Of a DNA stretch of 64,000 bases, positions 58,211-59,917 are shown in pieces. The position numbers were made by a program, and so were the translations under genes. Source of the DNA: Escherichia coli (GTDB lineage Bacteria > Pseudomonadota > Gammaproteobacteria > Enterobacterales > Enterobacteriaceae); assembly GCF_030384885.1 (NCBI RefSeq), contig NZ_CP128613.1, one strand, 5' to 3'. Under the pieces are notes generated by a model that saw only the letters and a program-made list of their open reading frames with translations, did not search any database and had not been told where the DNA came from. The first letter of the stretch is position 1. Each line of letters opens with the position of its first letter.

Positions 58211-59140
58211 CTACTTTTTCGTATAACTCTCTTCGCATTTAGCCAAAAACAGCAGATTAGTAGCGGTTAAATGAAGGGTATAACTCGCTAAATACTCAGG
58301 AACTTTTGTTATTTCTGCCCCTTGTCCATGTCCACCTTCTTTATTTCGAATGGTTGGAATACCACTCTCAAGTAGAATTCTTATTGAAGAAAATTGATTC
58401 TGGAGGTATTCAGGTACTAAATTATTTGCCAAACAACTGTTAATTAGTTTTTTAGCTGTGTCAGTATCATTAAATTGCCAAGAATGTTTTTTATGTATGG
58501 CTTTCATTAGACTTTCAAAAGATTTGAGGCAATCATTTAAACATTCTTTATATCGCTGATGTCTATAATGCTCATGGGCGGATAAAAACTCATCGTTTGC
58601 TCCGTTATAACTCTTGTTCTTACCAAGAATCTGAAGCGTAGGCTTTACAACATCAGAATGAATGAATTGTGAGTCAACTTTAACCAACTCTCCTGACTCA
58701 AATTGATATCCAAGACCTGCTTCTTTAAACCTGATATTAAGTTCTTCAATAGCATCATCAGGACTTTGCTTTACTAACCCTCTGAATTTCCACTCATTTG
58801 ATCTTATATACCCGTCTATCAGTTTGAAACATATCTCAATGATATCCAAGCATTTTTCATGATCTCTCTCAGCTAGGAAATAGTCAAAAATTGCCCCGAA
58901 ATTCGATTCAGGATACTGTTTGAGAGAGAATACACCATATTCCTTACACAGCGTTTTATGAACGAGTCTGTAAAGCTTACTTGCTTCCGTTTCATAGTCA
59001 CTATCTTCACCGATAGTATCTCTTACAATATGAACAACCTGAACACGAAATGCATTTGGTATATTCGTGTATTGGTAAACATCAGCTACTTCACCTCTTA
59101 ATTTTTTTTGTCTTTTTGAAAATAATTCGAATATAGCCAA
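58211..59140 (-). CDS. Prophage cargo protein, 309 aa: N-terminal Abi-associated-like domain + C-terminal HEPN-like domain (Rx5H motif RNKEGGH); TTG start
   Basis: Long ORF with AGGA RBS 7 nt before TTG; C-terminal helical region carrying IRNKEGGHGQ matches the HEPN Rx4-6H signature; not a known filamentous-phage core gene. Confidence 0.55.
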   Translation of the reverse strand: MAIFELFSKRQKKLRGEVADVYQYTNIPNAFRVQVVHIVRDTIGEDSDYETEASKLYRLVHKTLCKEYGVFSLKQYPESNFGAIFDYFLAERDHEKCLDIIEICFKLIDGYIRSNEWKFRGLVKQSPDDAIEELNIRFKEAGLGYQFESGELVKVDSQFIHSDVVKPTLQILGKNKSYNGANDEFLSAHEHYRHQRYKECLNDCLKSFESLMKAIHKKHSWQFNDTDTAKKLINSCLANNLVPEYLQNQFSSIRILLESGIPTIRNKEGGHGQGAEITKVPEYLASYTLHLTATNLLFLAKCEESYTKK

Positions 59141-59223
59141 TTTATAATCCTCAAAGATATGCCATTAATATGTCTGAGTTGATGAAAATCACACCGCTTT
59201 TACAGTCGTTTTCCACGGTGGAG

Positions 59224-59646
59224 TTACCAGTAATATGAGTTTCTTCTGTGCCACCAATAAAGAAGTCCGTATCCAATGATAAGAATTCCGAAAAACATCA
59301 ACGACATTCCCCAGCCAGTTCCGTACCACGAAACCATATCATCGAAAACTAACCCACCCATTTCACGAACTCCGGCTGCTTCCTTAAGAATTGGTTTGAA
59401 TACCGGAATCAGAAGGGCGATCGCAAGTGGAGCACCCCAGCGAACAAGACCAGTTTCCATTTTGATCCCGAAAAAGATCCCCGCACCGACAACAAGCAAC
59501 CAGACTATCAGGCCAGGCGCAGTTTCTAGTGCTGTTTGCCATTCAACATCGAAAGTTTTCATTAGCCAGGCAACAACTGCCAGACAGAAAGCAAATACGC
59601 CTACAACAACCAGTTCAACGCCGCTTGTTTCGTTATTTCTACTCAT
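59224..59646 (-). CDS. Prophage cargo small inner-membrane protein (about 140 aa, 4 predicted TM helices)
   Basis: Start chosen at internal ATG (MSRNNETSG...) with AAAGGATCAAAAGG RBS; the longer 189-aa reading would overlap the upstream gene; four hydrophobic segments. Confidence 0.5.
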   Translation of the reverse strand: MSRNNETSGVELVVVGVFAFCLAVVAWLMKTFDVEWQTALETAPGLIVWLLVVGAGIFFGIKMETGLVRWGAPLAIALLIPVFKPILKEAAGVREMGGLVFDDMVSWYGTGWGMSLMFFGILIIGYGLLYWWHRRNSYYW

Positions 59647-59734
59647 CCTTTTGATCCTTTGTTGCTGTTCAAAATCCGCACAATAAAGAACGTGCAGTGT
59701 AGGTAATACTGCACGTTTGTACCATTCGTGGTAC

Positions 59735-59917
59735 TTAATCCTTTTGTTTGGCAGACATGAGATCTTCTGCTGCATCTTTAGAGTAGTTATCAATCAGATA
59801 ACCTAAAATCTCTGTCCATGTAATTGTTTTTCCTAGTTTTACACTGGCATTTATAGCCAGTCGTTCTAGTTTCATTTTTCTTTCTTCCGTCACGTTATAA
59901 GTCGTGCGCTTTGCCAT
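59735..59917 (-). CDS. Small ribbon-helix-helix-like DNA-binding protein (60 aa); candidate prophage repressor or antitoxin, divergent from gII
   Basis: MAKRTTYNVTEERKMKLERLAINASVKLGKTITWTEILGYLIDNY... has the beta-strand/helix/helix pattern of RHH regulators; sits where integrative inoviruses carry their repressor. Confidence 0.5.
   Translation of the reverse strand: MAKRTTYNVTEERKMKLERLAINASVKLGKTITWTEILGYLIDNYSKDAAEDLMSAKQKD

Follow-up and report, generated by a model that had tools for sequence, protein, structure and literature searches.

Systems related to the locus

Proteins of the AbiJ family combine a HEPN domain with sensor-like N-terminal domains, and the archetype CBY_0614 was classed in 2013 as an AbiJ-NTD4 domain fused to the AbiJ HEPN domain (PMC3710099). 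The function of the STM4504/CBY_0614 family is known by computational prediction only, and our literature search found no published experimental test of any member of the AbiJ_NTD4 subfamily. AbiJ of Lactococcus lactis (Abi-859) is a single-protein abortive-infection determinant with a C-terminal Abi_C/HEPN domain, the Rx4-6H motif and a variable N-terminal domain; phage mutations that permit escape from AbiJ lie in an ssDNA-annealing protein. HepS, a prophage Abi protein with a single HEPN domain, senses a phage protein and then cleaves tRNA (PMC13043305); it is a 218-residue chain encoded by the Salmonella prophage Gifsy-1, which is tailed and can escape HepS only with a tail-tip variant. 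Taranis, found in the sedentary integron of V. cholerae, has an Abi_C/HEPN C-terminus and an AbiJ_NTD-like N-terminus related to NTD5, and is a promoter-poor single-gene cassette. HEPN proteins also take part in toxin-antitoxin pairs (HEPN-MNT and RHH/HEPN).

On the side of the carrier, defence-enriched variable loci beside a regulator have already been published for filamentous dif prophages (PMC11630473). The hotspots of Vibrio dif prophages (ISME J 2024) and the defence cargo of Pf phages have in common a variable border locus, a flanking regulator and diverse, rarely shared genes, enriched for defence and toxin-antitoxin functions; these studies cover Vibrio and Pseudomonas. In CUS-1 and YpfPhi (orf1/orf1a; YPO2271/2272 with the RstR-like YPO2273), a regulator is followed by two accessory ORFs near attL, and these attL-adjacent ORFs differ between the two phages. 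The literature searched contained no description of the slot of CUS-1-type prophages of E. coli and Salmonella, of its attP-hairpin boundaries, or of an AbiJ_NTD4-HEPN payload in it.

The locus described here lies in an Escherichia coli contig, of which a stretch of 64,000 nucleotides (the window) was analysed. As a preliminary description of this DNA had stated, three co-directional minus-strand genes, all present as ORFs, occupy the interval between a dif-derived junction and a replication gene, with intergenic gaps of 88 and 83 bp. The features of the region are as follows.

58113-58140, plus strand: dif-like hybrid junction, the attL core (gapped pattern search)
58113-58205, no strand: long imperfect hairpin (DNA fold)
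58209-59223, minus strand: variable cassette slot, comprising the HEPN gene and its 83-bp leader (BLAST breakpoints)
58211-59140, minus strand: HEPN gene, 309 aa (ORF with TTG start)
58226-58633, minus strand: HEPN domain, residues 170-305 (Pfam DUF7014/Abi_C)
58325-58348, minus strand: RNKEGGHG codons, residues 265-272, the HEPN Rx5H catalytic motif (predicted)
58637-59128, minus strand: AbiJ_NTD4 domain, residues 5-168 (Pfam PF18863)
59224-59646, minus strand: gene of the four-transmembrane (4-TM) protein, 140 aa (ORF and PGAP)
59735-59917, minus strand: RHH gene, 60 aa (ORF)
59918-60044, no strand: control region of 127 bp that separates the divergent RHH and replication genes
60045-61139, plus strand: inovirus replication initiator, gII/X family (PGAP start probably at 60087)

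The host hipBA genes end at 58036, before the dif-like junction, and Ff-like structural genes lie downstream of the replication gene, which matches TIGR01629 (2e-76, profile search) and phrog_702 (2.6e-119, PHROG). Together with the dif-like site, these genes bear out the earlier assignment of the element to a dif-integrated inovirus carrying the three genes in its accessory arm. A near-identical prophage is present in NCTC9104, where RefSeq annotates all three minus-strand genes and the replication gene; a megablast search of the region against phage records gave no match. We propose, with moderate confidence in the explanation as a whole, that a filamentous prophage related to CUS-1 and YpfPhi has integrated at dif next to hipBA, and that the region, its leftward accessory arm, is made up of three separable parts. 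In the layout of this arm the prophage matches CUS-1 and YpfPhi, but its regulator is of the RHH type and its structural genes differ from theirs.

The junction reads GGTGCGCATAA-TGTCAACGCG-TTATGTT, with an intact XerC arm (GGTGCGCATAA), a spacer of 10 nt and a XerD-like arm (TTATGTTGAAA). An exact dif search allowing up to 3 mismatches returned nothing, and the junction with its 10-nt spacer was matched only by the gapped pattern (1 match, with 0 expected by chance). The same junction region is kept at the hipA-prophage boundary in six other E. coli loci. In the hairpin that starts here, the XerC arm of dif base-pairs with an inverted copy of itself (CATTGTGCGAACC); the DNA fold of the hairpin reaches -30.4 kcal/mol (z = -7.7), and 0 of 200 shuffled sequences fold as well. 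Inside it, a GC-rich stem-loop (58146-58185) could act as a terminator of the leftward operon. An Rfam scan of positions 57900-60200 gave sub-threshold matches only, caused by the hairpin, and nothing in it pointed to a type III RNA antitoxin.

The 309-aa AbiJ_NTD4-HEPN protein

The 309-aa protein is identical to RefSeq WP_000963948.1 and, judged by its profile matches, is a member of a named AbiJ-type family. It matches NCBIfam NF046078 (STM4504/CBY_0614) with 456.1 bits (cut-off 150; E = 4.1e-137) over profile positions 1-280 of 281, as well as phrog_20794 (3.4e-195), and has the same two-domain architecture as CBY_0614, with no structural difference. AbiJ_NTD4 (E = 8.6e-27) forms the N-terminal part. 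The C-terminal part matches Pfam DUF7014 (1.8e-77); Abi_C scored just E = 0.62 in the Pfam release run, and precomputed annotation assigns Abi_C to all listed homologues. PADLOC returned a weak candidate match to PDC-S32 (4.5e-10, residues 6-223, the N-terminal part) and no match of the protein to its AbiJ model; the N-terminal domain is different from that of L. lactis AbiJ. The preliminary description had considered the system undescribed, a view that does not survive the NCBIfam name of the family and the 2013 classification of its archetype (PMC3710099). What appears to be novel is the carrier, a dif-integrating inovirus.

A HEPN fold had been expected at about residues 190-309, together with the RNase signature Rx4-6H, and both were found. 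In the AF2 model (mean pLDDT 90.4) the C-terminal part adopts the four-helix HEPN fold, located at residues 170-305, and Foldseek matched the protein to HEPN domains with a probability of 0.99-1.0. A sequence search of solved structures gave nothing meaningful for this protein, and fold comparison alone was informative. The signature IRNKEGGHGQ corresponds to residues 264-273 (R265-x5-H271), and in homologues of about 40% identity the motif RNx4HG is kept almost without exception (R265 in 79 of 80, N266 in 78, H271 and G272 in 79 each). Non-catalytic proteins such as sacsin and MtlR can have a HEPN fold too, but are devoid of the conserved R/H pair.

Homologues are numerous (3230 at E<=1e-5; 2720 representatives of 50% clusters), and just 5 phage records contain a match, at 25-43% identity. 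One of these, from Clostridium phage phiCp-A, bears the annotation of a putative abortive infection protein. On family and fold evidence, the defence role proposed earlier for the predicted HEPN RNase is the best reading: the protein most likely acts alone as an abortive-infection RNase and is probably carried as anti-phage cargo, with AbiJ_NTD4 as its predicted sensor or auto-inhibitory domain. It differs from HepS, which is without AbiJ_NTD4, and it is carried by a filamentous rather than a tailed phage. Its N-terminal domain is of the NTD4 type, in contrast to the NTD5-related domain of Taranis, and its gene resides without attC in a phage slot and not in an integron.

Alternatively, the HEPN protein might serve the physiology of the inovirus or the host, for example by excluding other filamentous phages or plasmids, by tuning RNA during chronic virion production, or by affecting fitness or virulence in an animal host. 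YpfPhi and CUS-1 have modest in vivo fitness effects and confer partial superinfection immunity (PMC4266046), the cassettes of extraintestinal and gut isolates are 100% identical in nucleotide sequence, and the role of the HEPN family is itself a computational prediction. However, YpfPhi, the source of those phenotypes, has different genes at this position, mobile solo genes of this family are widespread beyond inoviruses, and a variable N-terminal domain joined to HEPN is the architecture described for Abi proteins. We consider such a physiological role unlikely, although less so than the other alternatives discussed below.

Independent distribution of the three genes

Upstream of the HEPN gene, the 140-aa protein has four hydrophobic segments in its hydropathy profile (residues about 10-30, 43-63, 68-88 and 110-132), which agrees with its description as a 4-TM membrane protein. 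It matches phrog_4174 (4.9e-85) but no Pfam, PADLOC or NCBIfam family, and tblastn against phage records gave no match. Its homologues form 49 clusters, all from Enterobacterales, and the E. coli copies differ by 18-20 synonymous and 1-4 non-synonymous codons, indicating that the gene is under purifying selection. A longer, 189-aa reading of this ORF (start at 59793) probably extends too far upstream, since a length of 140 aa is supported by PGAP, by phrog_4174 and by the homologues, among them the Yersinia copy. The in-frame 5' extension is matched by phrog_6875. We regard the product as an inovirus accessory protein common to many related prophages, and a part in superinfection exclusion would be a guess.

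A census of 5426 complete E. coli genomes identified 17 carriers of the HEPN gene, 48 of the RHH region and 127 of the 4-TM gene; RHH and HEPN were found jointly in only 2 genomes, i.e. 2 of the 17 HEPN carriers and 2 of the 48 RHH carriers. Sixteen genomes, with two different phage backbones, encode an identical HEPN protein. In the CUS-1-type prophage of NC101 it stands behind an RstR-like HTH regulator, and the HEPN protein of a Salmonella inovirus likewise follows an HTH regulator; prophages of the NC101, UTI89 and Salmonella types combine such a regulator with the same 4-TM gene. The RHH and 4-TM genes of the window recur in VL46, E1 and UM146 upstream of unrelated cassettes, and BH100 contains the RHH backbone without the 4-TM gene, its whole arm being different.

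Outside inoviruses, all sampled HEPN homologues are solo genes. In V. cholerae they are single superintegron cassettes (one of them 74% identical) among toxin-antitoxin and acetyltransferase cassettes; in Klebsiella and other Enterobacteriaceae the homologue is a single gene beside an integrase in a proA islet; E. coli has one IS-associated solo homologue, and in Shewanella the gene forms a lone islet. Some of these tiny islets have no other defence genes nearby, and guilt by association is therefore modest. Each of the three genes thus occurs without the others across genomes, a distribution which indicates that the HEPN gene is a stand-alone gene and that the three do not make up a single system.

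The preliminary description had treated the three genes as a single module and suggested a search for it in other inovirus prophages; what such prophages contain is genes that assort independently. The idea of one integrated system, composed of an RHH regulator or antitoxin, a 4-TM membrane effector or anchor and a HEPN nuclease, draws on the co-directional and closely spaced arrangement of the genes and on their probable cotranscription (since the scan found no strong internal promoter or terminator among them). The block of 4-TM and HEPN genes is, moreover, 98.4% identical between two inovirus backbones. Against this stand the independent distributions, the replacement of the RHH gene by an HTH gene upstream of an identical HEPN protein, the at least six unrelated cassettes found downstream of the 4-TM gene, the RHH backbone devoid of that gene, and the solo homologues, all of which make the integrated system very improbable.

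The 60-aa protein has an RHH fold according to fold comparison, as had been anticipated; it has no Pfam match, and a search of solved structures with its RHH profile gave nothing meaningful. Its gene is divergent from gII across the 127-bp control region, which contains three CTCWTGAACTCA direct repeats (59961-59972, 59985-59996 and 60032-60043), 3 of the window's 4 copies of TGAACTCA and, in the promoter scan, a weak leftward promoter-like site (59978-59951). The RHH gene travels with the rep gene, and in CUS-1-type phages an RstR-like HTH gene replaces it at the equivalent position. This is the position occupied in CTXphi by RstR, the phage repressor. A small, exchangeable protein with a DNA-binding fold, encoded divergently from rep, is by this analogy most likely the prophage repressor and immunity determinant.

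Of the two roles first suggested for the RHH protein, repressor or antitoxin, only the former is favoured by its RstR-like position; it is most likely not a cognate antitoxin, because the genes assort independently and HEPN homologues are solo elsewhere. HEPN and RHH folds are both present in the locus, as in the HEPN-MNT and RHH/HEPN pairs, and a type II toxin-antitoxin module that stabilises the prophage by addiction had accordingly been suggested. We judge this to be the least probable explanation of all and extremely unlikely: the two genes are separated by the 4-TM gene and are not co-inherited, solo HEPN homologues have no small upstream partner of any kind, and the RHH gene sits in the repressor position. 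The locus also lacks an MNT nucleotidyltransferase, and its HEPN protein has a large N-terminal domain of its own. We thus return to the single-gene AbiJ_NTD4-HEPN cassette, lying in a variable slot and accompanied by an RHH repressor and a 4-TM accessory gene, as the explanation that is on balance probable.

The cassette slot and its proposed role

BLAST comparisons with VL46, UTI89, VR50, MS8345 and MB1159 showed that homology ends sharply at 58207-58214 and begins again at 59199-59224. The slot is therefore bounded by the attP-side hairpin, its left edge, which is conserved up to 58207-58214 in all prophages compared, and by the 4-TM stop codon. The GC content of the HEPN gene and cassette is 34.7%, compared with 41% for the phage. 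In related prophages at least 6 other payloads take up the slot; at least 7 different contents of it were seen in E. coli, and another in Y. enterocolitica. The other payloads include a 250-aa TM/coiled-coil protein, a Zn-ribbon protein with a 159-aa protein, a pair of 123 and 155 aa, and DUF6953 with a REase; in UTI89, whose serotype O18:K1:H7 is also that of the CUS-1 host, a 369-aa ORF takes the place of the HEPN gene. Defence-type domains are present in two payloads, namely the HEPN protein described here and the REase of VR50, which matches PADLOC Aga_Helical-REase (1.3e-34). PADLOC and NCBIfam scans of the remaining payloads gave no informative match, and most have no recognisable defence domain.

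As a variable locus near the prophage border, next to a regulator and between conserved flanks, the slot has the structure of an accessory hotspot. It is conceivable, although we propose this only tentatively and at well below an even chance, that in CUS-1-type inoviruses of Enterobacterales the slot serves specifically for the exchange of small cassettes. Its unannotated payloads might then form a reservoir of compact candidate anti-phage genes, carried without being triggered, of which AbiJ_NTD4-HEPN would be the first recognisable example, and the conserved 4-TM protein might either act in superinfection exclusion or serve the cassettes as a shared partner.

A GAGGA Shine-Dalgarno sequence lies 8 nt upstream of the TTG start of the HEPN gene. 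In the promoter and terminator scan, promoter-like sites were fewer than in shuffled controls, and neither of the two intergenic gaps contained one; no tandem repeats were seen on reading the 83-bp leader. The scan found no convincing cassette promoter, and expression in the lysogen is therefore assumed.

The TTG start and the absence of a detected promoter, along with the rarity of the gene (17 of 5426 E. coli genomes), might also indicate a silent or decaying passenger in this strain. The ORF is, however, intact and has all predicted catalytic residues; the protein is identical in 16 genomes and two phage backbones, the Salmonella inovirus copies are 96% identical with 21 synonymous versus 12 non-synonymous codon differences, and conservation is strong family-wide. 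We find a passenger state quite unlikely, and continue with the abortive-infection reading.

According to this reading, the lysogen would express the HEPN protein at a low level from its TTG start, either because transcripts of the leftward operon read through into the cassette or because the cassette has a weak promoter itself, and the N-terminal domain would hold the HEPN RNase inactive. Upon infection by a lytic (tailed) phage, a phage component would engage the N-terminal domain and switch on the R265/H271 active site. Cellular RNA (tRNA, mRNA or rRNA) would then be cut, growth would stop and the infection would abort; sibling lysogens, and thus the prophage, would be protected. The inovirus has no capsid, tail or recombination protein of the kind to which such sensors typically respond, and could therefore carry the gene without harming itself.

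The AbiJ_NTD4-HEPN cassette does not open a new category, and belongs to a large subfamily of thousands of clusters. The sharply bounded slot provides a simple route to harvest further compact candidate defence genes. If the proposed explanation is true, it would extend the reports on filamentous prophages of Vibrio and Pseudomonas to the Enterobacterales, and a very small chronic phage would pay for its residence in the terminus by arming its E. coli or Salmonella host with a one-protein abortive-infection RNase.

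The prophage and its junction

The arm of the window element that faces the host chromosome carries three minus-strand ORFs, and our ORF reading of the window placed them at the positions given in the preliminary description. The features of this region are as follows:

58113-58140, dif-like site, GGTGCGCATAA-TGTCAACGCG-TTATGTT, with an intact XerC arm, a 10-nt spacer and a degenerate XerD arm
58211-59140, minus strand, HEPN ORF, 309 aa, TTG start
59224-59646 (140 aa) or to 59793 (longest ORF), minus strand, membrane (4-TM) ORF
59735-59917, minus strand, RHH ORF, 60 aa
59961-60043, direct repeats CTCWTGAACTCA, three copies and a degenerate fourth, in the gap separating the RHH and replication genes

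The XerC arm (GGTGCGCATAATG) of the dif-like site pairs with an inverted copy (CATTGTGCGAACC) to form a long, imperfect hairpin (58113-58205; DNA fold -30.4 kcal/mol, z = -7.7), which recalls CTXphi's forked, single-stranded attP. Right of the cassette arm lies a divergent replication gene of the gII/X family (profile match 2e-76), behind which follow Ff-like genes for an ssDNA-binding protein, the major coat protein and an attachment protein, with Zot and secretin genes past the window end. A tandem prophage of E. coli NCTC9104 is near-identical (99.2% identity) and has the same gene set. Taken together, the Ff-like genes, the dif-like junction and this match identify the window element as a dif-integrated inovirus related to CUS-1/YpfPhi.

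Host genes to the left are lsrK, an ECSE_1600-type autotransporter gene and hipBA, which ends at 58036. The autotransporter gene (1822 aa, 50765-56233) and the hipBA toxin-antitoxin pair (56430-58036), intact here, stand immediately beside the prophage junction, and in some related genomes (VR50, VL46) IS elements disrupt the autotransporter gene or hipA. Two tandem prophage copies are present in each of NCTC9104 and NC101; in E. coli EC5502 (NZ_CP092647.1), 15-16 places match the RHH and 4-TM genes, which points to many copies of the inovirus or to one very long tandem array.

The HEPN protein and its two neighbours

The 309-aa protein had been described as HEPN-like and as part of a candidate undescribed system. 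The HEPN assignment is correct. Pfam detects AbiJ_NTD4 (residues 5-168, 8.6e-27) and DUF7014 (residues 170-305, 1.8e-77), with faint matches to Abi_C and HEPN, and the precomputed Pfam architecture of all listed homologues is AbiJ_NTD4 plus Abi_C. The HEPN motif is conserved almost throughout in an 80-member alignment of about 40% identity (R265, H271 and G272 in 79/80, N266 in 78/80), and an AlphaFold model built on this alignment is confident (mean pLDDT 90.4), with Foldseek supporting a HEPN fold (probability 0.99-1.0). The novelty does not stand, since the protein is a full-length member of the already named NCBIfam NF046078 "STM4504/CBY_0614 family" (456 bits vs a cut-off of 150), whose computational classification dates from 2013 (PMC3710099). 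The family is large, with 3230 proteins matching at E<=1e-5 and, among 50%-identity clusters, 2720 representatives.

The proposal that the three genes form one module is contradicted by their distribution among 5426 complete E. coli genomes:

Distribution of the three genes in complete E. coli genomes
HEPN gene: 17 genomes, all copies >=99.9% identical and chromosomal
RHH gene with control region: 48 genomes
4-TM gene: 127 genomes
Full three-gene arrangement as in the window: 2 genomes

The partners are also swapped. In NC101, a further 14 genomes and Salmonella, the 4-TM gene is likewise followed by the HEPN gene (protein identical or 96% identical), with a 148-aa RstR-like HTH protein as regulator and a structural backbone different from that of the window. 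Outside inoviruses all sampled HEPN homologues are solo genes: in V. cholerae they are superintegron cassettes, in Klebsiella and further Enterobacteriaceae they neighbour an integrase in a proA islet, in E. coli the gene is linked to an IS element, and in Shewanella it forms an isolated islet. These solo homologues and the separate genome distributions indicate that the HEPN protein is a self-contained unit, and the RHH protein therefore cannot be its dedicated antitoxin.

Within the V. cholerae chromosome 2 loci (L009-L012), the 74%-identical homologue is a single cassette, which in L011 adjoins a cassette of another HEPN family (DUF4145) and in L009 and L010 lies among ParE/Phd, MqsRA and TacA-type toxin-antitoxin cassettes.

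Of the two roles offered for the 60-aa protein, repressor or antitoxin, it is the former that is favoured. Its gene occupies the position of rstR in CTXphi and of the RstR-like YPO2273 in YpfPhi (PMC4266046), is exchanged for an RstR-like HTH gene between phage backbones, and points away from the replication gene, the 127-bp control region between them containing a weak leftward promoter-like site (promoter scan). The CTCWTGAACTCA repeats are candidate operators or Rep iterons; of the four copies of TGAACTCA in the whole window, three lie in this control region. The protein, without a match in Pfam, NCBIfam or PADLOC, is restricted to Enterobacterales (72 clusters), its exact sequence being present on at least 1000 contigs. 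It is best read as the predicted repressor and immunity determinant. In E. coli E1 (L004, 10587-13217) an extra unit of the RHH gene and a truncated rep gene precedes a complete prophage, an arrangement reminiscent of the RS1 satellite of CTXphi.

The middle protein has 140 aa (start 59646) according to PGAP, phrog_4174 and its homologues; the 189-aa ORF (start 59793) is probably an over-extension. The in-frame 5' extension (59629-59793, minus strand) overlaps the RHH gene end and matches a separate family, phrog_6875 (2.5e-20), a match probably due to misannotation in related prophages. The 88-bp stretch between the RHH and 4-TM genes is conserved in both phage backbones. Hydropathy reveals four hydrophobic segments; Pfam, PADLOC and NCBIfam scans gave no family assignment, and the range is Enterobacterales only (49 clusters). 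Judging from codon differences between E. coli copies (18-20 synonymous vs 1-4 non-synonymous), the gene is under purifying selection. Solo homologues near glsB with no surrounding phage genes, in Mixta intestinalis (L019/L020, 5001-5411) and Lonsdalea quercina (L021/L022, 5001-5423), may have stayed behind at the terminus when a prophage was lost, or the gene may have been domesticated.

A cassette slot with alternative payloads

BLAST breakpoints bound the variable slot at 58209 and 59198-59223, its exact left edge being the hairpin. It runs from the HEPN stop codon to the 4-TM stop codon, and the cassette thus consists of one ORF and an 83-bp leader. GC content is 34.7% in the cassette, 45.6% in the 4-TM gene, 41% in the remaining phage and ~50% in the host. 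At least seven alternative payloads, mostly unannotated, were found.

Payloads in related E. coli prophages
VL46, E1: 250-aa TM/coiled-coil protein replacing the HEPN protein, same RHH and 4-TM genes
UM146: ECs_2282-type zinc-ribbon protein and 159-aa ORF
ST131 MB1159: same pair as UM146, HTH backbone
UTI89: 369-aa ORF
VR50 (L014, 2363-3434): 88-aa DUF6953 protein and 264-aa protein
MS8345: ORFs of 123 and 155 aa

UTI89, which shares the serotype of the CUS-1 host, carries a payload different from the HEPN gene. BH100 (L032, 1264-2385) has an RHH backbone without the 4-TM gene, and its whole arm is filled by three ORFs (46, 91 and 230 aa) for which family scans gave nothing informative. The layout recurs in a Yersinia enterocolitica inovirus, with another payload. 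The C-terminal half of the VR50 264-aa protein matches the PADLOC REase effector Aga_Helical-REase (1.3e-34) and its N-terminus the candidate PDC-S35, which gives the slot a second defence-like payload.

Predicted function and relation to known systems

From these analyses, the cassette probably encodes a predicted single-protein abortive-infection RNase. The lysogen would express the protein at a low level, AbiJ_NTD4 would hold the HEPN site inactive until engaged by a phage component, and the R265/H271 site would then cleave cellular RNA, aborting the infection. Such N-terminal domains were proposed by Anantharaman et al. to be phage-component sensors restraining a suicidal HEPN RNase (PMC3710099). 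Capsid, tail, terminase and recombinase, which could set off such sensors, are all absent from an inovirus, so it may be a safe carrier. Among analogues, the mechanism is best worked out for HepS, carried by the Gifsy-1 prophage: siphovirus tail-tip proteins activate this single HEPN protein allosterically, and it cuts tRNAs in their anticodon loops (PMC13043305). For lactococcal AbiJ, whose mechanism is still unknown, phage mutants that escape are altered in an ssDNA-annealing protein (PMC13064643). Taranis, an AbiJ-like Abi_C cassette of the V. cholerae integron, confers defence (bioRxiv 2024.07.02.601686).

The accessory ORFs by attL of CUS-1 and YpfPhi have been described as being of unknown function, with content that differs between the two phages (PMC4266046). 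Dif-integrating filamentous prophages of Vibrionaceae were shown in 2024 to have a variable, defence-enriched, regulator-flanked locus near the border (PMC11630473), and several defence systems have been reported in Pf phages (PMC11878078). Our literature search found no paper on the function of the STM4504/CBY_0614 subfamily, nor on such a payload in an inovirus. To this picture the present study adds the exact boundaries of the slot, the independence of the three genes and a catalogue of seven or more alternative payloads.
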